Of a stretch of DNA of 64,000 nt, positions 10,492 to 51,954 are shown piece after piece. The translations under genes were made by a program, and so were the position numbers. The stretch lies in NCBI GenBank assembly GCA_938010045.1, contig CALLFZ010000020.1, positions 38,754-102,753 of the forward strand, given 5' to 3'. The first letter of the stretch is position 1. Each line of letters opens with the position of its first letter. Source of the stretch: an uncultured bacterium. GTDB taxonomy: Bacteria; Verrucomicrobiota; Kiritimatiellia; PWTM01. Below the pieces are notes generated by a model. It saw only the letters and a list, made by a program, of their open reading frames with translations. It did not search any database and was not told the origin of the DNA.

Positions 10492-11444
10492 GCGCGGGCC
10501 TCCAGCAACCAAGGGTTCGCTCGCAGATAGCGCAACGTCCGGACCACCGCGTCGCGGATCGAGAGCTTCGGCGTCCAGCCGAGCGACCGAATCCGCCGTG
10601 TGTCGAGGAAAATGAACGGGCTATCGCCCACCCAGCCGCGAATGCCGCCCGTGTAGCGCAGTCGCGGCCTCACCCCCAGCTCCTCGCAGATCCAACGAAC
10701 AGAGTCGTTCACCTCGCAGTACTCGTCGGCACCGAGGTTGAAAATGTTCACGCGGTGGTCGGCCCGTTCGATCGCGAGCCGCATCGCGTCAATACAGTCC
10801 TGCACGTAGAGATAGGACTTGCGCTGATGTCCATCGCCGAGCACCTCGAGCTCCCCGGGGTTGATGAGCAGCTTGCGGTAAAAGTCGAAGACGTGGCCGT
10901 GCGAGTAGTGCTCTCCGAGGATCGAAACGAAGCGGAAGATCCACGCCTGAAATCCAAACCCCTCGCAGTAGGCCTCAATCAGTCCCTCGCCGGCCAGCTT
11001 CGATGCGCCATACAGCGAGGTTTGCACTGGGAACGGCGCATCTTCGGGCGTTGGAAAGACCTCCGGTTCCCCGTAGATCGAGCCGGTCGAGGCGAACGCG
11101 ATTCTCCGTACGCCCGTCGTCCGCATCGCCTCGAGCACGTGGAAGGTGCCGATTGTGTTCTGTTCGAGATCCCGGCGCGGATGCTCGGTGCCGAACCGTA
11201 CATCCGCATTTGCCGCCAGATGCACCACCAGGTCCACCCCGTCCGTCGCGGCCGTGATCGCGGCCGGATCCAATAGATCGCCGCGCAGCAGCTCGAAGTT
11301 CGGCGCCTGGCGCACCGCATCGAGAAACCGCTCCTGGCCGGTGGAGAAGTTGTCGAAGACCCGAACTCGGTGACCCTCGTGGATGAGTCGCTGCGCGAGA
11401 TTGCTGCCGATGAATCCGGCGCCGCCGGTGATCAGGACCTTCAT
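10488..11444 (-). CDS. NAD-dependent sugar-nucleotide epimerase/dehydratase
   Basis: MKVLITGGAGFIGSNLAQRL is an extended-SDR N-terminus, with YxxxK downstream. Confidence 0.82.
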   Translation of the reverse strand: MKVLITGGAGFIGSNLAQRLIHEGHRVRVFDNFSTGQERFLDAVRQAPNFELLRGDLLDPAAITAATDGVDLVVHLAANADVRFGTEHPRRDLEQNTIGTFHVLEAMRTTGVRRIAFASTGSIYGEPEVFPTPEDAPFPVQTSLYGASKLAGEGLIEAYCEGFGFQAWIFRFVSILGEHYSHGHVFDFYRKLLINPGELEVLGDGHQRKSYLYVQDCIDAMRLAIERADHRVNIFNLGADEYCEVNDSVRWICEELGVRPRLRYTGGIRGWVGDSPFIFLDTRRIRSLGWTPKLSIRDAVVRTLRYLRANPWLLEARA

Positions 11445-12568
11445 GATGACCGGGAATCCGTCGGTTGTGTCGGGGCGGCGGCCGCCGCCAGCAGCTCGTC
11501 CACCGCCGCCTCGACGAGCCTCTCATCGAGCTCCTCGAGGCATGCCATTGGGCGCTCGTGCGTGCAACGAATGCCGTGTTTCGAGAAAAAATAGCAGGGG
11601 CTGCAGGCGAGACCAAGCCGGACGATTCGGCACGGCACCCCGTAGGGTCCGGTGGCGCGCGGATCGGTGGGGCCGACGATCTCGACGGTGGGCACGCCCA
11701 TGGCGGCCGCCACATGAGTCAGCAGCGTATCCCCGCACACGAACACCGCCATGCGCCGGATCAGCGCCGCGGTATCGAGAACCTGCCCGTCCGGCGCGGC
11801 CGTAATCCGCGCCGGGCCAAGGCCGGACCGTCGAGCCACCTCGTCGCGCAACGGCCGTTCCTCGGCGCTGCCGAACAGCAGTATGCGCGCCTCCGGGTGA
11901 CGCGACACCACGCGCCGGGCCAGTTCTGCCCAACGTGCGACCGGCCACCGTTTGAGAATCAGGTTCTTCGTGGTGCCCGACCCGGGATGGAAGCCAATCC
12001 ATGGCTGCCCGAGCGCGCCCAGCGACCGAAGCGCCGCCTCCGCGCGCGCTTCGTGATCCGGCTGCGGGAACAGCCGCGGCATGTGCGGGGGCGATCCTTT
12101 GAGCGGCAGGCCCAGCCCCTCGGTGAGGAGGCGCAGGTTGTTGTCGACGACATGGAGGCGGCGATCCTCCCGGACCACATTCGTCAGCAGCAGGCGCGGC
12201 CGCGCGCCGCAATTGCACATGAACTCGAAGCCAACGCGTTGTCGCGCGCCGATCAAAAACGTGATCAGGTTATACTCCAACCGGTTCTGCGGCATCACTG
12301 TGAACGAGAGGTCATAGTGCCGACGGCGCAGGCGGAGGCACTCGAGCACCGAGCGCCTTCGCCCGGCGGCCATGAAATCGAAGCCGAGCACCTCGTCCAC
12401 CGCAGGGTTGTGGGCGAGCACCTCGCGGGGCGGCGTCCCCTGCATGGTCAGCACCTCGATGCGCGCTCTCGGAAAGTGCCGCCGGACCTCGGCGATCAGC
12501 GGGGTCGCCAGCAGCGTGTCGCCCGCGCCGGCCAACGAGAGAACGAGGATTCGCCGGGGAACCGTCAT
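11441..12568 (-). CDS. Glycosyltransferase family 9 (heptosyltransferase-like)
   Basis: RILVLSLAGAGDTLLATPLI... and the later GDTLLTHVAAAMGVPTVEIVGPTD resemble ADP-heptose:LPS heptosyltransferase (RfaF/RfaC family). Confidence 0.68.
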   Translation of the reverse strand: MTVPRRILVLSLAGAGDTLLATPLIAEVRRHFPRARIEVLTMQGTPPREVLAHNPAVDEVLGFDFMAAGRRRSVLECLRLRRRHYDLSFTVMPQNRLEYNLITFLIGARQRVGFEFMCNCGARPRLLLTNVVREDRRLHVVDNNLRLLTEGLGLPLKGSPPHMPRLFPQPDHEARAEAALRSLGALGQPWIGFHPGSGTTKNLILKRWPVARWAELARRVVSRHPEARILLFGSAEERPLRDEVARRSGLGPARITAAPDGQVLDTAALIRRMAVFVCGDTLLTHVAAAMGVPTVEIVGPTDPRATGPYGVPCRIVRLGLACSPCYFFSKHGIRCTHERPMACLEELDERLVEAAVDELLAAAAAPTQPTDSRSS

Positions 12569-13806
12569 GCTCCCGGCGCCTCCCGCCAGAGCCACGCCAC
12601 ACGCGCGCCGAGCGCAACGAGCGCGGCCATACCGGCCACGGCCATCGCGGAAATCATCGCGTGCGGGTCATCCGCGCACCGGCCGAGCAGCACGGCAATG
12701 TACGCCGCCGCGACCGGCGCGAGCGCGGCGGCCGGTGCGCGCACCTGCTGTCGCGCCCACAGGTACTGCATCACGACGGTCGTCAGGGCCATCGGAATGA
12801 CCGACCACGCGTAGGCCCGCAGCAGCCGGATCATCACCGTGGTCTCCACGCCGTACATCGCCCGCAGCGCGAAGCCGGGTGCCACCGTAACCGCCGCCGC
12901 CAACGCCCCTGAGAGCGCGAGCGCCATGCCGGCCGGCTGCAGGAGCATGCGACGGCGGTCCGAGACTACCGCTCTGGGAAACATGGCCAGCACCAGGGGC
13001 ATCGGTAGAAACAAAACCGATCGGGCCAGCATCGCGGCCTTGCCATAGGCGGAGAAGACCGGGCCGTGCAAGAGGCGGGGCGCCAGAATGAGGTCAGCGT
13101 TCATCAGCGCGTACACGACGAACTGCCCGCCGGCCACCGGCAAACAATAACGGGCGAAGGGCCCAAGGCTCAGCCGTTCGGCGGGAGCCCGTCTCACCAC
13201 TTCGCGCAGCGGCCACAGCCCCACAAGCACGCCCGCCGCGACACTGGCCGCGTACACCCCGAGCATCGCTGCCGCGTCGCCGCCTGCGCGCGCCACCGGC
13301 CACGCCAGCCCCAGCCGTACCAACCCGGGCGCAAGCCCCGCCGCCGCCATCCAGCCAAACCGCTGCGCCCCCTGCAACGCGCCAGACACCAGCGGCGCAT
13401 AGAGGCTAATCCAAGCGATCACCCCCACCCACCACAGCGCGCCCACGCGCGAGACGCGTAACCACGCGTGCATCGGCGCCGCCGCGGCCCCCCACACCAG
13501 CAAGAGCAGCGCCCCCGTCATCGTGACCACCCGCGCCACGGAACCCACCAGGCGCCCCCACATCGCCTCGTCGCGCGCATGACAGTATTCCGCCGCATAC
13601 CGCGCCACCGCCACCTGCAGCGCGGCCGACGGCACCAGTACGATCCAGAGCAACCCCAGAAGGGATGCAAACGCGGCGTATTCGGTCGGCGCCATCCATC
13701 GGCCCGCGACCATGTGGACCGCGAGAAACAACAGCCCCGCGAGGCCGTTGCTCACGATCATCACGGCGGAATCGCGCGCAAGGCCGAGGTCCCACCGCAG
13801 TTTCAT
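12565..13806 (-). CDS. Polysaccharide biosynthesis protein / oligosaccharide flippase (Wzx/MATE-like), multi-pass membrane
   Basis: The product is about 413 aa and strongly hydrophobic, with 10-12 predicted TM segments. It ends a glycan gene cluster. Confidence 0.55.
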   Translation of the reverse strand: MKLRWDLGLARDSAVMIVSNGLAGLLFLAVHMVAGRWMAPTEYAAFASLLGLLWIVLVPSAALQVAVARYAAEYCHARDEAMWGRLVGSVARVVTMTGALLLLVWGAAAAPMHAWLRVSRVGALWWVGVIAWISLYAPLVSGALQGAQRFGWMAAAGLAPGLVRLGLAWPVARAGGDAAAMLGVYAASVAAGVLVGLWPLREVVRRAPAERLSLGPFARYCLPVAGGQFVVYALMNADLILAPRLLHGPVFSAYGKAAMLARSVLFLPMPLVLAMFPRAVVSDRRRMLLQPAGMALALSGALAAAVTVAPGFALRAMYGVETTVMIRLLRAYAWSVIPMALTTVVMQYLWARQQVRAPAAALAPVAAAYIAVLLGRCADDPHAMISAMAVAGMAALVALGARVAWLWREAPGA

Positions 13807-15916: not shown

Positions 15917-16320
15917 GAGCCTGACATCATACGGCCCGAAATACCGATGCGCAAGCGACCACCCACGATTCCCGTGCCCCCACGTCCGACGCCGCCGAAC
16001 CCTGCAGACGGACGGCCGAACGGACGGCAGGTTTCGAAACGGTGTTTCCAAGGATTGGACGATGATACCGAGCAGCCATCCAAACCTTGGACGCGACTCA
16101 ATCGCGGGCGGCCCCACCGTAGGGGGAACCGGCCGCCCACCTCGGCGCCGTGCCGCGGCCAACTCACAACACCTCGGCCATCCGTGGCGCCGACGTCGCT
16201 GGGCACTTCCGCTCCGACGCCCGCGATCTGCAAGGCGGTATTCTGCGGCGTACATGGCTGGCCGGATCGTTTCCGAGCTCCGGCGCCGGAGCGGTGCCTG
16301 CGAGCCGGCGGGGTTGTCCG

Positions 16321-16354
16321 GTGCCTGTCGCCGCTCTTCGGTGGGGACAGGCAC
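16321..16354. repeat. Short hairpin copy of the GGGGACAGGCAC / GTGCCTGTC repeat family (9-bp arms, 16-nt loop)
   Basis: The sequence is GTGCCTGTCgccgctcttcggtgGGGACAGGCACAAG. The same 15-mer GGGGACAGGCACAAG occurs at 51206. Confidence 0.45.
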
Positions 16355-16517: not shown

Positions 16518-16594
16518 TGGTGCGCCTGCCGCGGATCGAACGCGGAACCTTCAGCTCCGGAGGCTGACGCTCTGTCCAATTGAGCTACAGGCGC
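16518..16594 (-). tRNA. tRNA-Arg (anticodon CCG)
   Basis: The reverse complement folds as a cloverleaf: acceptor GCGCCUG/CAGGCGC, D-arm GCUC/GAGC, anticodon stem UCAGC/GCUGA with loop CUCCGGA, T-arm CCGCG-UUCGAUC-CGCGG, and an encoded CCA. Confidence 0.85.
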
Positions 16595-27484: not shown

Positions 27485-28780
27485 TCATGTCCGTTTCCCC
27501 TTCTCCTCCACCACCAGCCCCGGCAATTGATACTTGCCCGGTACGGCCACCGGCGGCACTGGCATCGGGTCGCTCATCTTGAGGTCCGACCGCGGCCGCA
27601 GATCCAGCTCACAACGCTGCAGGAACCACTCCCGCTTCATCTGCTGACGAGTGTAGGCGGACTCGCGCGCCATGATCGCGCACATCGTGCTCTCTGTGAC
27701 CTGCCGCGCCTCGTTCAGGTACGCGCCGCCCCGGATACTCTCGATGAGATGCCGGTGCTCCTCCACGTACGGGTTCGGCGTCGGTCCCTCGTACCGCCAT
27801 TTCACCTCCCCCTCAATCACACCGGCGCAGTTGCTCCACCCCTTCGTGCCCACCACCCGCTCGCTCACGTTGCCCGCCGAACCCTCGATCTGCCGGCACA
27901 GGCTGATCGTGCGCACGTCGCCCGGATAGAAGAATTCCGTGCCGAAGTGATCGTAGATGTGGCCATACTCCGGCGCGGTCCGGAACTGCCGGCCGCCGAG
28001 CGAATGGACCTGATCCGGCAGAGCGCCCATCGCCCAGTTGATCACATCAATGTTGTGCACGTGCTGCTCGACGATATGATCGCCCGATAGCCACACGAAA
28101 TAGAGCCAGTTGCGAAGCTGCCACTCGATGTCGCTCTGGTTCGGCTCACGCTTCTTCACCCAAAGACCACCCTGATTCCAGTAGCACTGCGCCGAGACGA
28201 TTTGGCCGATCGCGCCATCGCGAATGCGCTTCATCGTCTCCATGTACTTCGGATCATGCCGCCGCTGCGTGCCGGCCGCGACGCAGAGCTTCTTCGCGAC
28301 TGACTTCTCCGCCGCCTCGAGCATCTGCCGCACGCCCGCCGCGCACACCGCGACCGGCTTCTCGGTGAAAATGTGCTTGCCCGCCTCCACCGCGGCCGAA
28401 AAATGCAGCGGCCGGAACCCCGGCGGCGTCGCAAGGATCACCAGGTCCACCTCGCTGAGCGCGAGCACTTCGCGGTAGGCCTCGAGCCCGACAAAGCAGC
28501 GGTTGTCGGGGACCTTGAACTTTGCTTTCGCGCGCTCCACGCGATCCGCGAACGCATCGGCCAGCGCCACGATCTTCACGCCCTGAGCGGCCTCTAGACA
28601 ATTGTCCGCCGCGCCCATACCGCGGCCGCCGCATCCAATCACGCCAACCCCGATGGTGTCGGTCGCCGCCGTGTAGGCGACCCTGGGAGCCGCGCCGGCC
28701 AGCGCAAATCCGCCCGCCGCCATCGCCGTCCGTCCCAGAAACCGCCGCCGATTCATCCGTGCGATGTCCGCCATAATCAT
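27485..28780 (-). CDS. Gfo/Idh/MocA family oxidoreductase with Tat signal (paralog of 26130..27440)
   Basis: NRRRFLGRTAMAAGGFALAGAA is a Tat motif and GVIGCGGRGMGAA a Rossmann motif. AAGGAG lies 3 nt upstream of the ATG at 28780. Confidence 0.75.
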   Translation of the reverse strand: MIMADIARMNRRRFLGRTAMAAGGFALAGAAPRVAYTAATDTIGVGVIGCGGRGMGAADNCLEAAQGVKIVALADAFADRVERAKAKFKVPDNRCFVGLEAYREVLALSEVDLVILATPPGFRPLHFSAAVEAGKHIFTEKPVAVCAAGVRQMLEAAEKSVAKKLCVAAGTQRRHDPKYMETMKRIRDGAIGQIVSAQCYWNQGGLWVKKREPNQSDIEWQLRNWLYFVWLSGDHIVEQHVHNIDVINWAMGALPDQVHSLGGRQFRTAPEYGHIYDHFGTEFFYPGDVRTISLCRQIEGSAGNVSERVVGTKGWSNCAGVIEGEVKWRYEGPTPNPYVEEHRHLIESIRGGAYLNEARQVTESTMCAIMARESAYTRQQMKREWFLQRCELDLRPRSDLKMSDPMPVPPVAVPGKYQLPGLVVEEKGKRT

Positions 28781-29960
28781 CTCCTTGTCGCGCGGGGCAC
28801 ACGCAGAACGCGCCGCCGTCGCATCAAATCCATACTCTATCCCCGGACAGCGCGTCCGCACAAGCCGCACCCCGCCCCTCGCGCCGTTTGCGCTGTGGGG
28901 CATCCGCTGGCTCAAGAGGCGTCGGCGAAGCGAATATCGTTCCCGCCAACACCCCGGCGCCACTCACCCGCGCTTCTCGCCCTTCCTCGAAAAACACGAA
29001 TGCTTCGACCATCCGCCCCCCTGGGGACCGGCACTTGGAACGCCCCTCGAGACCGGCACCTCGCCGGCCCTACGGCGGCGCGGGGGACAGGTACCTCTGA
29101 CGGGCACCTCTGACGGCTGAGCCCGAAACAAGCACCTCGCGGGCGGCCGCTGGGAAGAGGCACCTTGCGGGCGGATCGGGACAGACTCATGTACGGTCGG
29201 CCGGGCCGCTCGGCGTCAGTCGCCTCGCGTCAGCTACATGCAGTCGTCTTAGGGACCGTCATAGGCGCCATAGGGACAGGCACCGTTCTGGGAGCGGAAC
29301 CGGGATGGGCACTGAGAGCTCACGGGGCACAGGGTGGGGACAGGCACAGCACCGGCCGCACGAGTTCCAACGACACTTCTAACGCCGAGAGTGGGGCTGT
29401 CGTGTGCCTGTCCGCAGTCCGCTGCGGCCGTCCGCGATTGGGGACAGGCACATGCGCCGACGACGCAAAAATCTCGCTGTCCCTATGCTCTGACTTCGTA
29501 TCGGGTGCCTGTCCCCATCGGGAGTCGCGATCGATGTCGAGCGCCGCCGCGCGGAAGCCCGCGAGTGGCGAGGCCGCCGTCTGCGGCGAGCAGGGCGGGC
29601 CCGACGGTTTCCCGCCGCTGTTCGATAGAGGACCGGCAGACGAGGCATACATGCACTTCTATCCGCTTCTACCGGCATGCAGACCCCTCGTCGCATCTCT
29701 TGACACAATCCACAACGCGATCCCACCTACCCCTCCGACCCGCGAGCCCTCTGCGCAGGATCGCATCTTGGAACGGCGAAGCGGGGCGCTCCAGCACCGC
29801 GCCCGATGAGGACGCGCGGGTTTCTTCCGCGGGTCGCGGCGCGCCGCCTTCGGCGGTGCGCAAACGCGGACGGTGCCGGCTAGCCGCTTGCAGGAAGCGG
29901 CGGGGCGTCGTAGTGTCTGGCTGCCACGCCGATCAGCCACCGGCGGGCGGGAGATTCGTC
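28781..29960. repeat. Non-coding repeat island A: mosaic of GGGGACAGGCAC / GTGCCTGTCCCC modules plus degenerate GCACCTC tandem repeats
   Basis: This is 1.2 kb with no credible ORF. The core 12-mer or close variants occur at 29023, 29083, 29271, 29336, 29404 (inverted), 29440 and 29505 (inverted). Long stretches align to island B. Confidence 0.65.
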
Positions 29961-30785
29961 ATGCGCCGGTTTCGTCCTTGGTGTCTCGCGGCGGGTGCCC
30001 TCTTCGCCACGGGATGTATCGAAAGCAAAATGGTCATCCATCTGACACCCGATGGTTCGGGCACGATCATCTCAGAAGACTTCTTCTCGCCGCAGGCGAC
30101 GACGATGATGACGCAGTTCGGTGCGGCCCTGGCCGGCACGGGCACCACCGCCGCCGCCAGCGACCCTCTCGCGATATTCAAAGACCAGATTGAGCGGAAA
30201 ACGAAGGAACTCGGGGGCAGGGCCCGACTCGTGAAACAGGAGCCCGCCACGAACGCCACCGGTTGGGCCGGGTTCCGGCTCACCTACGCCTTCGACGACA
30301 TTCGGCAGGTGTCACTGCCCGTGGGTGGATCCGATGCGGAACCGGAGGATGACGACTCAAAGAAACCCGAGACGTTCCGCGTCGAATTCGAGCGCGGACG
30401 CCCAGCCGTTCTGCGCCTTCTGCCACCCTCGACCGCCGCGAAGCCGGCCGAAGCGCCGCCGACGGCGGCGCCATCGCCAGATGCGAACAACGCACAAATG
30501 GCCGCCATGATGGCGCCCATGATGGCCGGCATGCGAATGGCCATGGAGATCCGCGTGGACGGAACGATCGTGAGCGCCGAAGGCGCCGACGTCAGCGCCG
30601 ATCGCCGCAGCGTCACGTTGCTCGACGTCGCGGTGGACAAGCTGCTCGGCAACGCACAGGCGATGCAATTGATGATGAATAAGGGGTTGTCCGACTCCGA
30701 AAAAAGCCGCCAATTGAAGCAACTCAACATTGCCGGCGTGACCATCACGGATCCGAACCGGCCCATCGTCATCAAGTTTGAGTGA
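29961..30785 (+). CDS. Hypothetical lipoprotein
   Basis: The ATG is preceded by GGGAGA. The signal peptide has a lipobox (LFATGC). The mature part is Ala/Met-rich and low-complexity. No known domain was recognised. Confidence 0.5.
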   Translation: MRRFRPWCLAAGALFATGCIESKMVIHLTPDGSGTIISEDFFSPQATTMMTQFGAALAGTGTTAAASDPLAIFKDQIERKTKELGGRARLVKQEPATNATGWAGFRLTYAFDDIRQVSLPVGGSDAEPEDDDSKKPETFRVEFERGRPAVLRLLPPSTAAKPAEAPPTAAPSPDANNAQMAAMMAPMMAGMRMAMEIRVDGTIVSAEGADVSADRRSVTLLDVAVDKLLGNAQAMQLMMNKGLSDSEKSRQLKQLNIAGVTITDPNRPIVIKFE

Positions 30786-36419: not shown

Positions 36420-37414
36420 CGCGGCGGGCCGGCGAGGCCGAGCGACTCTCCTCCCAGCGTTGGACGCTCAACCGCCGGCGCCGTCCATGGCTTGGACCGA
36501 ATCCCCGTGACCTCGTCCAATGCGGGGACCCCTCCCCCTGGGCGAGAGGTCGCGCGCCCGACCTGCGAGGCGCCCGCGGTCCAGCCCCACGCGCGGCGAC
36601 GAAGTTCGCGCGGCGGCATCGCGAACAGCCGCCGTACACACCGCGAAAAATGGAAGGGGTTCGCAAACCCACACCGCTCGGCGACCTCCGCCACCGAAAG
36701 GCCCGTCTCGGCGAGCATCGCGGCGCCGCGTTCGATCCGCAGCCGCCAGAGGTATCGGGCCGGCGTGAGGCCGGTCGCGCTCCGAAACTTGTAGATCAGC
36801 GCATTGGCCGAGCAGCACGCCGCCCGCCGCGCACCATCGAGGCAGTCGGTTTCGGCCAGGTGCGTTTCCATATGGTGGATCGCTCGAATGACACATGGAT
36901 CCACCTCCGGCGCCGCGGTCGCATCGCGCCCCAGCCGCGCATACTCCGCGAGCACCGCGCGGCCGAGCGCCTCCACTGCCCAGCGTGCCGCCTCGTGGCG
37001 GGGCGGCGGCATCGCGAACGCGGCCGCAAACATCCGCTCCAGCGTCGCCGACATCGCCACGGCCCGCCGCGTATCTTCTTCCAGCGCGCGACGCAGCCTT
37101 GTCGGCACCACTGAGGGCGCGACAGCACACCATGAGTGATGGGTCGGGGTCGTGACCGAGAACCGGAACCACTCTCGATGGCCAGGCGTGAAGAGATGCA
37201 CCGCGCCCGGCGCGAGCTGTCGCACCGCCCCGTCCACCCGCACCTCGCACGAGCCGCTATGCAGAACCACGAGCTGATAGTCGCGCTGGACCCTCGGGCC
37301 GCAGTAGCCCCCCGGCAGATACCGCACCTGGCCAAACGACACCGTCCGTGTCCGCACGCCGCGGCGATCCCATGCCACACCCAGGCCGTCGTCGTTGGGG
37401 CGCAGTCGTTCCAT
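36392..37414 (-). CDS. AraC family transcriptional regulator (cupin-type ligand domain + HTH)
   Basis: LSVAEVAERCGFANPFHFSRCVRRLFAMPPREL is an AraC-type HTH. Confidence 0.8.
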   Translation of the reverse strand: MERLRPNDDGLGVAWDRRGVRTRTVSFGQVRYLPGGYCGPRVQRDYQLVVLHSGSCEVRVDGAVRQLAPGAVHLFTPGHREWFRFSVTTPTHHSWCAVAPSVVPTRLRRALEEDTRRAVAMSATLERMFAAAFAMPPPRHEAARWAVEALGRAVLAEYARLGRDATAAPEVDPCVIRAIHHMETHLAETDCLDGARRAACCSANALIYKFRSATGLTPARYLWRLRIERGAAMLAETGLSVAEVAERCGFANPFHFSRCVRRLFAMPPRELRRRAWGWTAGASQVGRATSRPGGGVPALDEVTGIRSKPWTAPAVERPTLGGESLGLAGPPRYCAATLWR

Positions 37415-46212: not shown

Positions 46213-47363
46213 GAATCCTCGTCGTCGAGTTTCGTGACCCGCAGCACCCGCAGGCGGGCGGCGCCGAAACTCTGCTGCTTGAGGTGACCCGTCGATGGGT
46301 CGCAGCGGGTCATGCGGTGGACTACCTGTGCTGCCGTCCGGCCGGTGCCCCGCCCGAGTCTGAACTGCGCGGGGTGCACATAGTGCGGCGCGGTCCCCAG
46401 CCCGTCTTCAATTACCTCGCGCCCATCGCCGCGCTCCGGCTCCTTCGCGAGCGACGTCATGATGTGATCGTGGAAGGGCTCGACAAAGTGCCCTTTTTTC
46501 TGCCGGCGGTGCGGCCGGGCTGTCCGGTCGTCGCTCACGTGCCCCATCTGTTTGGCGAGACCATTTTCCGGGAGGCGCCGTGGCCGGTGGCCGCCTACGT
46601 GTGGGCGATGGAGCGCCCGATCCCGATGGTCTATCGGCGCTGCCGTTTCTCCGCGCTCTCGGAGACGACGCGCGATGACCTGGTCCGGCGCGGCGTGCGG
46701 GCCGACCGCATCCGCGTCATTCCCCCCGGCATTGACCATGACCGGTACGGCCCCGATCCCTCGGCGCCGCGGGCGCCGGTGCCGACGTTGCTCTACGTCG
46801 GCCGGCTCAAACGCTACAAGAACATCGAAACCGCGATCGAGGCCCTGGCGCGGCTCCGACGCGACGTGCCCGACGCGCGGCTGGAGATTGTCGGCGCGGG
46901 CGACCACGAGGGGCCGTTGCGGCAGCGTGCCGCGGAATTGGGGTTGACCGCCGCGATCGAATTCACCGGCCGCATCAGCGAGAAGGAGAAGATCGCTCGT
47001 CTGCGCCGCGCGACGGCGCTGGTGTATCCCTCGCCGAAGGAGGGCTGGGGACTCTCCGTGATCGAGGCCAACGCCTGTGGCACTCCCGCGATTGCGAGCA
47101 ATTCGCCCGGGCTGCGCGACGCCGTGGCCGACGGTCTCAGCGGCCTGCTCGTGCCCCACGGCGATCCCGGCGCGCTGGCCGAGGCGGCCCGCCGAATCAT
47201 CCGGGACCCTGAGTTCGCCGCTCGTCTTCGCGAGGGCGCGCTGAGCTGGGCGGCCAGGTTCTCGTGGGACCGCGCCGCCGGGGAGATGGCCGAGCTGCTG
47301 TGCGACGCGATCGCCGACCGCCGCGTTACGCGCGCGGGTGAAAGCGTTCGTGGACCTGCTTGA
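46209..47363 (+). CDS. Glycosyltransferase family 4
   Basis: The C-terminal GT4 motif (PSPKEGWGLSVIEANACGTPAIASNSPG) is present. A GTG start overlaps the GT2 stop. Confidence 0.8.
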   Translation: MRILVVEFRDPQHPQAGGAETLLLEVTRRWVAAGHAVDYLCCRPAGAPPESELRGVHIVRRGPQPVFNYLAPIAALRLLRERRHDVIVEGLDKVPFFLPAVRPGCPVVAHVPHLFGETIFREAPWPVAAYVWAMERPIPMVYRRCRFSALSETTRDDLVRRGVRADRIRVIPPGIDHDRYGPDPSAPRAPVPTLLYVGRLKRYKNIETAIEALARLRRDVPDARLEIVGAGDHEGPLRQRAAELGLTAAIEFTGRISEKEKIARLRRATALVYPSPKEGWGLSVIEANACGTPAIASNSPGLRDAVADGLSGLLVPHGDPGALAEAARRIIRDPEFAARLREGALSWAARFSWDRAAGEMAELLCDAIADRRVTRAGESVRGPA

Positions 47364-48213
47364 GCCGTCCCGCGTCCACGTGGGTGTAGATCTGGGTCGT
47401 CGCGATGTCGGCGTGGCCGAGCATCTCTTGAATCACGCGCAGCGGCGCTCCGTTCGCGAGCAGGTGGGTGGCGAAGGTGTGCCGCAAGGTGTGGGGGTGC
47501 ACGCGCTTCGCGAGACCCGCGCGCGCGGCATACCGACGCACCCGCGCCCAGATCGTCCGCCGGTTCAGGGGGCCACCCCGCGCCGAGAGGAACAGAGCCG
47601 GAGAACTCGACCGTCGCGCAAGCCGTGGCCGCTCCTCCTCGAGGTACCGCCGCAGCCATGCCGCCGCGGTCTCGCCAAACGGTACCACTCGTTCCCGCCC
47701 GCCCTTCCCAAGGCAACGCAGCATGCGGTCCTCCAACCGTACGCGATCGAGCGTGAGCCCTGCCGCTTCGGACACCCGCAATCCCGTCGCATACAAGAGT
47801 TCGAGAAGCGCGCGATCACGGACTCCATGCGGCCGGTCCATGTCGGGAGCCGCGAGCAGGCGGTCCACCTCCCGCTGGGTCAGCGCATCCGGCAGCACCC
47901 GCCACACCCGTGGCGCATCCATCGTCTCCGCCACATCCGCAGCCAACAGCCCCTCGGCGTGAAGATACCGGAACCAGGACCGGATCGCGGCCAGACGCCG
48001 GGCGATCGTCGTACTGAGCAGCCCCGCATCGCGCCCCTCCATCAGAAACGCAACAATCTCCGCGCGGCCGATCCCCGCGGGCGAGGTGATCCGTCGGCCG
48101 GCCAGAAACCGTTCGAACTCGATCAGGTCCGTCCGATAGGCCGCGCGCGTGTGCGGGCTCAGACCACGCTCGAGTTCGAGAAACTCAATGAACTGGTCAA
48201 TGAATGCCCGCAC
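47326..48213 (-). CDS. xerD: Tyrosine recombinase XerC/XerD
   Basis: The RHTFATHLL...LGHADIATTQIYTHV catalytic region and an N-terminal SAM-like domain are present. XerC versus XerD cannot be resolved from this sequence alone. Confidence 0.85.
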   Translation of the reverse strand: MRAFIDQFIEFLELERGLSPHTRAAYRTDLIEFERFLAGRRITSPAGIGRAEIVAFLMEGRDAGLLSTTIARRLAAIRSWFRYLHAEGLLAADVAETMDAPRVWRVLPDALTQREVDRLLAAPDMDRPHGVRDRALLELLYATGLRVSEAAGLTLDRVRLEDRMLRCLGKGGRERVVPFGETAAAWLRRYLEEERPRLARRSSSPALFLSARGGPLNRRTIWARVRRYAARAGLAKRVHPHTLRHTFATHLLANGAPLRVIQEMLGHADIATTQIYTHVDAGRLKQVHERFHPRA

Positions 48214-50718: not shown

Positions 50719-51077
50719 CGCAGCTCCTCCGGCAATTGCGCGCGACGCGCTGGATCCCCTGGAAGATCGTTGGCATCGAACCCCAGAAGCACAATCGCGC
50801 GCTCAAAGTTGCGTCGCGCCGCGCGCTCGCTGTTATAGGTCACCCTAACCACACGATTCGAAGGATCGGTCTCCACGCGGATCAGGATGTTCGTGTCGAA
50901 CCCGCGCAGTGCTTGCTCCACCATCTGGACTGCCTGCGGCGTCCGCATTTGAGGCACGCGGATCTCAAAGGTTCGAATCACCTCGCGGAAGCACCCGGCC
51001 GCCAAGAGCGCCGCGACCACACCACACATCCAGCGCATCAAGGTTCTCCTACCGTTCGTTCGGGCACGGACACGCAC
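50715..51077 (-). CDS. Hypothetical small lipoprotein
   Basis: The signal peptide has a lipobox (LLAAGCF). The stop overlaps the pepA start. There are no conserved cysteines for an HMA fold. Low confidence. Confidence 0.35.
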   Translation of the reverse strand: MRVRARTNGRRTLMRWMCGVVAALLAAGCFREVIRTFEIRVPQMRTPQAVQMVEQALRGFDTNILIRVETDPSNRVVRVTYNSERAARRNFERAIVLLGFDANDLPGDPARRAQLPEELR

Positions 51078-51798
51078 GATAGGGCTGCGCGGCTGCTCCT
51101 GTCAAATGATCGAATCTCGAGAGGAACACGGTCACCTCTCTGGGCGCAGGGGGCGAATCGAACCGACGGGGGTAGCCGGGACGTTGGCTCTGGCTAGGCG
51201 CCCTTGGGGACAGGCACAAGCGCAGACGACGCAACCATCTCGATCTCAATCTGCCGTGACTTTTTGTCGGGTGCCTGTCCCCATTTGAGTCCCCATTTGA
51301 ATCCTCGATCATTGTCGAGCGCCGCCGCGCCGATGCCCGCTCACAACGAGGCCGTCGATCGCGGCGGTCGTGGCACAGGGCTGGCCTGATGGTTTCCTCT
51401 CCGCTGTAGCTCCGGCGCTCCGCCGCCGGAACAAGGCTTGTGGGGGCCGGTGGTAGCAGGCACCTCGGACGGCGGCTGGGACAGGCCCCTCTGGAGCGGC
51501 TGCTGGGGAGAAACACGTACCTGCTCGGCCGAGCACTCCAGCGATCATCGCCCCGCCCTAGCCGCCAGAGATCGTCATAGGGACAGGCAGCGCTCTGGGC
51601 GCAGGCTGGTGCAGAGAACCGATCGGGTTCGCTAGGTGCCTGTCCCCAGTCCGGTCCCCAGCCCGCTGCCCCGTCCGCCATTGGGGACGCCATTGGGGAC
51701 AGGCACACGTCCCGCGGAATCCTCCTACCCGCATCCTGACCCCACGTTTTCCCCCTTCGAAACAAAATCCGCCGCGCAATCGGCTTTCCGGGGCCCTC

Positions 51799-51827
51799 TT
51801 GACGCAGAACCTTGTCGCTTGTATGTT
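51799..51827 (+). promoter_or_regulatory. Candidate sigma70-type promoter (TTGACG-17-TATGTT)
   Basis: The -35 and -10 hexamers have 17-nt spacing and lie immediately upstream of a strong hairpin and U-tract. The -35 region is conserved in island A (CTCTTGACACA at 29697). Confidence 0.3.
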
Positions 51828-51833
51828 GATCAT

Positions 51834-51897
51834 GGGCAGTGTGCGTTTTCCCTGGGTTCCCCACCCAACCTCCTTGGCGCACGCTGCCCTTTTTTTG
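51834..51897 (+). terminator. Intrinsic-terminator-like hairpin (12-bp stem with one G-U, 32-nt loop) plus a 7-T tract; with the promoter, a candidate small RNA of about 60 nt
   Basis: GGGCAGTGTGCG...CGCACGCTGCCC is followed by TTTTTTT. The U-tract exists only in the + orientation, which is antisense to cysK. Confidence 0.4.
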
Positions 51898-51954
51898 TTT
51901 GCGTAGCCACGAAACCGGCCGGATGGCCTGGACCGAAGCGGTCGTCGTGCAGCC

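Follow-up and report, generated by a model that had tools for sequence, protein, structure and literature searches.

The locus analyzed here raises the question of what two non-coding stretches in the genome of an uncultured Kiritimatiellia bacterium are, and how they came to hold the same sequence modules in a different order. Both lie within the window, the whole 64-kb stretch of DNA that was analyzed. A first-pass annotation had described the interval 51078-51954 as a repeat island (island B) built from the same blocks as another island (island A), and had proposed that the two are diverged paralogs of a dispersed element family. Our analysis indicates that islands A and B are probably clusters of REP-like miniature repeats with a BIME-like layout, which belong to the TIRYT-linked family of GGGGWSAS-headed TIRs and were presumably mobilized by a Y1 enzyme.

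The building block of the islands is a 12-13-nt head, (T)GGGGACAGGCAC, which occurs singly, as inverted dimers with 47-56-nt spacers, or in runs. Searching the window for the 11-mer GGGACAGGCAC with at most one mismatch returned 15 copies, compared to 1.7±1.2 expected from dinucleotide shuffles. All 15 copies are intergenic, and they are confined to island A, island B and a third site at 16321-16354. The heads sit on both strands with irregular spacing and mixed orientation, and exact GGGGACAGG copies occur nine times in the islands and the third site (site C).

Island B spans 51108-51790, approximately 680 nt of non-coding DNA, with limits that were set by comparison with an empty orthologous site: the flanks align with a relative up to 51107 and again from about 51799/51821. 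Its modules are described on the plus strand. Module Z (51205-51283) is a REPIN-like inverted head dimer in which TGGGGACAGGCAC (51205-51217) and GTGCCTGTCCCCA (51271-51283), complementary at 13 of 13 positions, enclose a 53-nt spacer. It is followed by a head-free tail (51284-51440) that is common to island A (29518-29640) and is shared in part with site C (16209-16274). Module X (51441-51602) is a run of degenerate heads in the same orientation, among them one at 51442 and GGGACAGGCCC at 51478-51488, with a 27-nt period at 51457-51507 and with the 16-mer GTCATAGGGACAGGCA (51574-51589) as its last element. Module Y (51577-51688) consists of a second inverted head pair, AGGGACAGGCAG (51579-51590) and GTGCCTGTCCCCA (51636-51648), with a 47-nt spacer, and of a stuttered outer flank. 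Two partial copies are found as well. The first, y' (51128-51150), is a decayed copy of the start of Y that is 83% identical to 51583-51605 and lies 455 nt upstream of this good copy. The second, z' (51688-51707), is a solitary head, CGCCATTGGGGACAGGCACA, which is truncated so that it ends just inside the head; it is 95% identical over 20 nt to the start of Z (51199-51218) and lies 489 nt downstream of it.

Island A (about 28875-29885) is approximately 1 kb of non-coding DNA. On the same strand, its module X (29021-29295) contains degenerate same-orientation heads at 29022-29034, 29083-29094 and 29271-29284 and a 9-nt stutter at 29259-29276, its module Y (29335-29416) pairs TGGGGACAGGCAC with GTGCCTGTCCGCA across a 56-nt spacer, and its module Z (29439-29517), directly followed by the tail at 29518-29640, again has 13-nt arms with full 13/13 complementarity (TGGGGACAGGCAC at 29439-29451, GTGCCTGTCCCCA at 29505-29517) and a 53-nt spacer. 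Site C (16209-16354, plus strand) begins with a tail-like stretch (16209-16274) and continues with degenerate heads and a small head-to-head hairpin at 16321-16354, made of GTGCCTGTCGCC, 10 nt and GGGGACAGGCAC (-17.5 kcal/mol, z -2.75); the only tRNA gene of the window, tRNA-Arg(CCG) at 16518-16594, is nearby. When folded as DNA, module Z reaches -19.9 kcal/mol in island B (z -2.8) and -22.4 kcal/mol in island A (z -3.5), and the dimer hairpins fold moderately better than shuffled sequence. As in a REPIN, two inverted units with a short spacer can form one long hairpin here.

Alignment of the two islands by blastn produced three collinear blocks. Module Z with its tail aligns between 29433-29621 and 51199-51407 (72% over 209 columns, E 3e-30; mean column identity 82% with MAFFT), module X between 29129-29295 and 51457-51602 (64%), and module Y between 29337-29445 and 51580-51688 (67.5%). 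Because of the order of these blocks, island A reads X-Y-Z-tail and island B reads Z-tail-X-Y, and with the partial copies the order in B becomes (y')-Z-tail-X-Y-z', a circular permutation of that in A. Since the z' and y' copies are 489 nt and 455 nt apart from the good copies, the composite unit, which includes heads as well as shared spacer and tail sequence, has a length of about 455-490 nt; island B comprises approximately 1.3 of its periods and island A about one, in another phase. Smith-Waterman scores were 81 for the whole islands (14.3±1.5 in shuffles, with a shuffle maximum of 20), 37 for the X-Y part alone (12.2±1.7 shuffled), 42 for the head-free 110-nt tail (11±2 shuffled), and 23-30 for the tail of island B against site C (about 10.7±1.8). 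The hairpin spacers of A and B are identical at 39 of 53 positions. Together with the shuffle controls, this identity means that the similarity of the islands is not an effect of GC-rich low-complexity sequence, which had been named as the outcome that would overturn the assignment. Shared modules in a different order, a 53-nt-spacer hairpin in each island, and a relationship as diverged paralogs had all been proposed in the first-pass annotation, and all of this held. The duplicated insert that it had reported in island B was also recovered, as CGCCATTGGGGA(C) at 51676-51700. The shared 16-mer needed a correction: it is intact in island B, while its equivalent in island A is broken by the 9-nt stutter and reads GTCATAGGCGCCATAGGGACAGGCA (29259-29283). 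A head-recognizing enzyme by itself does not account for the 110-nt tail or for the remaining parts of the islands that lack heads.

Short tandem duplications are found at the outer ends of heads. In island B there are three cases of the form '7-nt flank + GGGGA' with a period of 12, namely GTCCCCATTTGA in 2.3 copies at the outer head end (51277-51304), a threefold repeat at 51643-51678, and CGCCATTGGGGA in 2.1 copies at 51676-51700 (all detected with TRF). One stutter of island A is absent from the related locus L203. Across phyla, stutters are present at the outer end of 25 of 290 heads, compared to the inner end of 7 of 290.

The genes around the islands allow the filled sites to be compared with those of relatives. 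Island A lies between a GFO/IDH/MocA gene (27485-28783, minus strand) and a gene for a 274-aa protein that has no Pfam match (29961-30785, plus strand), which have divergent promoters. Island B has as its neighbors a 107-aa lipoprotein-like gene, an M17 peptidase gene and a cysK/PLP-enzyme operon, and is located between the lipoprotein-gene promoter (minus strand, 51105-51076) and the promoter of a small-RNA gene. This conserved gene (51799-51896, plus strand) is not part of the repeat family. Its promoter has TTGACG as -35 element and TATGTT as -10 element, and the putative small RNA itself is placed at 51834-51896. The stem measures 12 bp, the 32-nt loop is invariant, a T-run is present, and 4 of the 19 pairs counted carry compensatory changes in four relatives. 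Besides the repeats, the interval 51078-51954 contains the lipoprotein-like gene promoter and this small-RNA gene, and its last 250 nt are unrelated to the repeat family.

An identical copy of the CysK protein of the window is encoded on metagenome contigs, and a 'Kiritimatiellae bacterium' MAG has a CysK with 96% identity. On a related Kiritimatiellia contig (L122/L207), which encodes CysK, the lipoprotein and the 274-aa protein at 93%, 83% and 62% identity, both sites are empty. At the site of island B, approximately 55 nt separate the two promoters, compared to approximately 680 nt in the window, and both the small-RNA promoter and the lipoprotein promoter (TTGACA-N17/18-TATCGTGCGTGT) are conserved in L122. 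At the site of island A, the intergenic region measures 238 nt, compared to 1177 nt in the window. The MAG GCA_026417735.1 (L206) is likewise empty at this site, with 214 nt. No heads were found in the 21 kb around the cysK gene of this close relative (L119; CysK 96%), and because of this the head family is considered to be patchy. By comparison, island A has been retained in L203, a closer relative whose 274-aa protein is 95% identical; its heads are arranged there in the same way, and its identity to the window is 92% (blastn) or 95% (MAFFT). It follows that both islands were added between divergent promoters in a lineage-specific manner and were then vertically inherited. The comparison with orthologous loci that had been proposed to tell whether the islands are insertions thus had a positive outcome. 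Synteny after cysK differs among the relatives, which places island B at a rearrangement junction. The position of island B at a synteny breakpoint of close relatives hints that such clusters may promote rearrangement.

To follow the head beyond this lineage, a cross-genome scan was done with the pattern GGGGACAGGCAC-N38-66-GTGCCTGTCCCC, using one genome per species. The exact inverted 12-mer pair with a 38-66-nt spacer was found at at least 115 loci from more than 10 phyla. Among the matches listed there are many Planctomycetota, Thermoanaerobaculia and other Acidobacteriota, Verrucomicrobiota, Actinomycetota (Collinsella, Atopobiaceae, Microthrix, Gaiellaceae), Bacillota (Lachnospiraceae and other Clostridia), Nitrospirota (Nitrospiraceae), Bacteroidota (Bacteroidales) and Pseudomonadota, with Alpha-, Beta-, Gamma- and Deltaproteobacteria; two cultured strains, Massilia sp. 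SM-13 and Acidaminobacter hydrogenoformans DSM 2784, are among the matches listed, and several genomes contribute many of these loci. The 12-mer is the only sequence common to all listed loci, and the flanks and spacers are lineage-specific, often extending the palindrome or forming a local stem around the head. With a third site in the window and inverted head dimers in genomes of many phyla, the element family is indeed dispersed. Clustering of the neighboring genes of the 115 listed loci revealed no shared protein, only synteny within Collinsella and ORFs that overlap the repeats. One gene situated between opposed heads (L082) had been considered as a transposase and was discarded, as it is holA.

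The head fits a class of repeats that has been described previously. Di Nocera, De Gregorio and Rocco (2013, PMC3733652) named the genes TIRYTs and the units TIRtrons, and reported that the flanking TIRs share GGGGWSAS and make up families of moderate abundance, 'organized as REPs in dimers or clusters'; the authors state that the activity of TIRYTs on such repeats had never been shown biochemically. TIRYTs are IS200-like HUH tyrosine transposases. Quentin et al. (2018, PMC6006769) place most of them in TnpA-Y1 subclass 2.1, with a C-terminal HTH, where the flanking repeats read GGGG[AT][CG]A[CG] and canonical REPs were not found. The corresponding group of Bertels et al. (2017, PMC5581495) is RAYT group 1, which has the widest distribution of all RAYT groups and flanking 16-mers that are modestly repeated. 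In the window, the outer end of the head, GGGGACAG, matches GGGGWSAS position by position, with A at W, C at the first S and G at the last. Intergenic units occur singly, as dimers (51205-51283, 51579-51648, 29335-29416 and 29439-29517) and in groups (the X runs) over three sites. From this head and the published descriptions of TIRs, it follows that the islands fit the TIRYT/TIRtron class, a kind of selfish DNA that is already known. The remaining hallmark of TIRtrons, a repeat that flanks a gene for a Y1 domain with C-terminal HTH in inverted orientation, was found in other organisms only.

The association of heads with such genes was investigated in approximately 1 Mb of fetched DNA with phmmer, using sequences of IS200 TnpA and an E. 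coli RAYT as seeds only. Two ORFs were matched. One of them, in an AT-rich Bacteroidales locus (L115), is a 271-aa Y1_Tnp gene (PF01797, E 5e-9) with an exact head dimer 200 nt upstream, and the relatives of its protein are annotated as RayT or REP-associated tyrosine transposase, many with HTH domains. The other (L037) was set aside because it is a plain IS200 bounded by a different palindrome that is unrelated to the head. For the L115 protein, 26 homologues were aligned and 80 metagenome loci encoding relatives (275 kb) were fetched. These loci contain 8 one-mismatch head matches, all in 5 loci, compared to a chance expectation of about 1.2 by our own arithmetic for uniform composition, and 7 of the 8 lie near the gene and are inverted as expected, plus upstream and minus downstream. 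The TIRYT genes with one-mismatch heads on both sides are those of L124, L131, L145, L158 and L182, and the heads that bracket metagenome TIRYT genes in this inverted fashion read GGGGACAGG[C/T]AC. The sequence GGGGACAG is located upstream of the gene in 5 loci, compared to 0 for its reverse complement CTGTCCCC, which is downstream in 5 of 64 evaluable loci compared to 1 for GGGGACAG. Of 74 loci, 29 have GGGGWSAS itself at a distance of 40-145 nt upstream of the gene, compared to 5 with its reverse complement there; the two upstream variants are GGGGTCAGG[TC]CT, which is the majority form, and GGGGACAGG[CT]AC. The heads at the metagenome TIRYT genes are one base off the head of the window, with only that of L115 being exact, about 60% of the TIRYT loci have no strict GGGGWSAS upstream, and the correspondence between transposase tree and head type is only loose.

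Several other classes of element and signal were considered for the islands and were set aside. The classical definition of REPs (GTAG superfamily) and BIMEs does not apply, as the heads start with (T)GGGG, there is no GTAG by the hairpins, and one head by itself forms no palindrome. The dimers are flanked by CGCCCT/T...A/TTTGAG and CGCGAT/T...A/TCGGGA, which are not the direct repeats expected of a MITE of a DDE transposon, and Tn3-type ends (GGGG...) are excluded by the lack of a 5-bp duplication and by the palindrome running past the head in other phyla. A CRISPR array requires regular spacing, unique spacers and adjacent cas genes, whereas the spacing here is irregular and the orientation mixed. 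An integron cassette array, with attC sites (GTTRRRY) and intI, was rejected because the only integrase-fold gene of the window (47326-48213) encodes a 295-aa XerC/D-type protein and is beside the SAICAR synthase gene in island-free relatives too. Reading the head as a sigma-54 promoter was rejected by inspection, since the spacing from GG to GC is 10 nt and not 12. When the literature was searched for the head, spelled as DNA and as RNA, the only matches were primers for eukaryotes. To our knowledge, the head does not fit rRNA, tmRNA, RNase P, SRP RNA or sequencing adapters.

Explanations in which no enzyme moves the repeats also have to be weighed. Purely local processes, such as slippage, unequal recombination and gene conversion among the hairpin repeats, might have produced the islands with no transposase, and the head that is seen across genomes would then be an old relic. 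Island B does resemble approximately 1.3 periods of a tandem unit (spacings 455 and 489), there are micro-tandems with periods of 12 and 27, and one stutter differs between the window and L203. The window also has no transposase gene to offer: no TIRYT gene was detected in the 64 kb with phmmer or with a profile search of six frames, and the six-frame profile search found no decayed TIRYT or transposase pseudogene in the islands or the tail (best E 27). However, local processes cannot explain how homologous composite units reached three sites that are separated by 13-22 kb or how two sites were filled for which a relative has no island, and they leave unaccounted for the same 12-mer that brackets Y1 transposase genes in unrelated organisms. 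We therefore regard this explanation as unlikely.

It is much less probable still that the heads are transcription-factor operators and the islands regulatory regions. Such an array of regulator sites would agree with the placement of both islands between divergent promoters and with the many copies of a 12-bp non-palindromic motif. It is unlikely because relatives keep the flanking genes and their promoters without the islands, and because the identical head occurs in unrelated contexts, as terminator-like palindromes downstream of genes in many phyla. The flanking genes are also functionally unrelated (an oxidoreductase and the 274-aa protein; the lipoprotein-like gene and the cysK operon), and many of the module X heads are decayed. 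Hardly any weight can be given to the islands encoding a protein or structured non-coding RNAs, even though the gene caller of the assembly annotated a 271-aa ORF across island B (the ORF of 277 aa spans 51049-51882, minus strand) and the hairpins fold better than shuffles. The codon-position GC of this ORF is 0.64/0.65/0.66, and similarly flat values hold for the long ORFs that cross the islands, unlike every real gene nearby (GC3 0.72-0.84, GC2 0.46-0.57); because of this flat GC, the islands are not coding. The ORF has no Pfam annotation, the whole window gave only the tRNA-Arg at the Rfam gathering threshold and nothing in the islands, island B at E values up to 10 gave just chance matches to miRNA models, and no tRNA was found in the islands. 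In addition, the heads are on both strands and the region is absent in relatives.

Transposition by the Y1 enzymes of IS200/IS605 is established as acting on single-stranded hairpins without target duplication. The absence of a target-site duplication at the dimers of the islands fits this type of transposition. Because the window has no TIRYT gene, we can only infer that the islands were mobilized by a Y1 HUH enzyme with single-stranded hairpins as its substrate, in the manner of IS200/IS605 and as proposed for REP/RAYT; the filled and empty orthologous sites are indirect evidence for such mobility. The anatomy of the islands, the enrichment of heads, the filled and empty sites, and the association of gene and head in other organisms are observed directly. 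A TIRYT that is encoded elsewhere in the genome, or that was once present, may recognize the head when the DNA is single-stranded at the replication fork, cut next to or inside it, and copy or move the units without target-site duplication. The permuted order could result from a tandem array if trimming differed between the two sites, or from a circular single-stranded intermediate if another head was used to re-open it. The stutters with a period of 12 at outer head ends may reflect slippage or abortive strand transfer.

A broader interpretation is offered tentatively, as a possibility that we rate well below the TIRYT-linked reading itself: a clade of subclass-2.1 Y1 enzymes might use GGGGACAGGCAC as its recognition ('guide') sequence and support a REPIN-like replicator in more than 10 phyla, with the permutation and the stutters as its footprints. 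The permutation of the approximately 470-nt multi-head unit would then represent a circular single-stranded intermediate re-opened at a different head, and the 'flank + GGGGA' duplications would mark the point of cleavage and strand transfer inside the head. If this is true, the GGGGACAGGCAC-guided system is much broader than that of GTAG-REP/RAYT; Quentin et al. had reported no REP-like partner for this subclass.

In terms of significance, previously unexplained 'repeat islands' become an identifiable class, which prevents mis-annotation such as the ORF that the gene caller placed on island B. Short-read contigs break inside island B. The little-studied TIRYT/TIR system is extended. The exact conservation of the head from Kiritimatiellia and Planctomycetota to Collinsella and Bacteroidales points to a putative, very conserved protein-DNA recognition that can be tested. 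Sites with and without an island, together with the permuted copies and the stutters at head ends, provide concrete substrates and predictions for how Y1 enzymes work.

The islands can be compared with three known systems. With IS200/IS605 (TnpA-IS200, subclass 1.1), the proposed mechanism shares the HUH/Y1 domain, the recognition of single-strand hairpins and the lack of target duplication, and circularly permuted copies would arise readily from a circular single-stranded intermediate like that of IS200/IS605. In contrast to IS200/IS605, the islands have no transposase or tnpB gene and no asymmetric LE/RE hairpin ends, and their copies are old and diverged (64-82%). The islands resemble the REPs, REPINs and BIMEs of Proteobacteria (Nunvar 2010, PMC2817692; Bertels and Rainey 2011, PMC3116915) in being short extragenic repeats with inverted doublets that form hairpins, in their mosaic clusters with varied linkers, in having an HUH Y1 enzyme as proposed mobilizer, and in their vertical inheritance within a lineage (here, island A at 92% in L203). 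They differ from REP/RAYT in that there is no 5' GT[AG]G, a single unit is not a 20-40-bp palindrome, the dimer spacers are long (47-56 nt), and the enzyme class is subclass 2.1 with an HTH tail rather than 2.2 or 2.5.

The closest agreement is with TIRtrons. As in TIRtrons, the head fits GGGGWSAS, the units are intergenic singles, inverted dimers and clusters with a wide and patchy distribution and no target-site duplication, and inverted heads are found on both sides of Y1_Tnp+HTH genes, with a distance of about 40-145 nt to the start codon. Differences exist as well. No cognate gene is present in the 64-kb window, 12 nt (GGGGACAGGCAC) rather than 8 nt are conserved identically across more than 10 phyla, the units are inside a composite of about 455-490 nt that has shared head-free sequence and is permuted at two sites, and the host belongs to Kiritimatiellia, which the available text of PMC3733652, PMC6006769 and PMC5581495 does not mention. 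In summary, what the islands add to the known class is a Kiritimatiellia host, exact 12-nt conservation across many phyla, and composite permuted units with multiple heads.

The right end of the island B interval is occupied by a conserved small-RNA gene (51799-51896, plus strand) that is located downstream of cysK. Its promoter is sigma-70-like (TTGACG-17-TATGTT), and the gene includes a T-run and a stem of 12 bp in which four pairs show compensatory changes when four Kiritimatiellia relatives are compared. The 32-nt loop, UUUUCCCUGGGUUCCCCACCCAACCUCCUUGG, is invariant and includes CCUCCU, an anti-Shine-Dalgarno-like sequence. A search of Rfam gave no match for this gene.

Island B itself, the cluster of REP-like repeats, has a single GGGGTCAGG at its right edge, on the minus strand (51735-51743). 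This sequence is the majority variant of the head of TIRYT, the Y1 tyrosine transposase genes with flanking inverted repeats, and its lone copy here may be a chance occurrence. Because of the repeats, contigs assembled from short reads of this organism are interrupted within island B or at its edge, with one contig (L117) ending at 11511 and another (L118) at the cysK stop, and a 271-aa ORF was placed on the island by the assembly's gene caller; both the breaks and the ORF are artefacts of assembly and annotation.

Another feature is a paired 13-bp palindrome, TCCAA-N3-TTGGA, which was found at 16047-16091 and 36452-36496 of the window (4 sites vs 0.74 expected), with a spacing of exactly 32 nt within the pairs. 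The motif is also carried by intergenic regions of relatives, at 11290-11345 of locus L119 and 12790-12880 of locus L120, and the pair is probably the operator of some regulator. In the related contig with empty island sites (L122, 5837-8795), the genes for the lipoprotein and for SAICAR synthase have no M17 aminopeptidase gene between them; it is replaced by about 3 kb in which all of the ORFs are without Pfam matches.

The heads, the repeat units of the islands, were observed in several other arrangements. In the Kiritimatiellia relative L120, three to four heads (TTTTCGTGCCTGTCCCC) lie between genes at 12990-13270, upstream of DAHP synthase/lptC; all have the same orientation and none has an inverted partner, and therefore heads also occur as direct runs. 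In Collinsella, elements of 89-90 nt (loci L009, L013, L015, L017, L039, L046, L048, L060, L062, L065, L070-L072, L087 and L091) hold the head in the loop of a local 12-14-bp stem, AACCACCACAAA-head-TTTGTGGTGGTT, and their neighbourhoods are syntenic in several species of the genus. A very uniform 63-nt palindromic element with the same heads as the islands was seen across many planctomycete genera (L004, L005, L008, L011, L016, L019 and about 30 further loci). Its conserved core, GCCGGAACGGCCC-N4-GGGTGCTTCGCAC, is asymmetric and occurs in both orientations. Since compensatory changes adjoin the heads and there are A/T runs on the outside, the planctomycete element looks like a bidirectional terminator.
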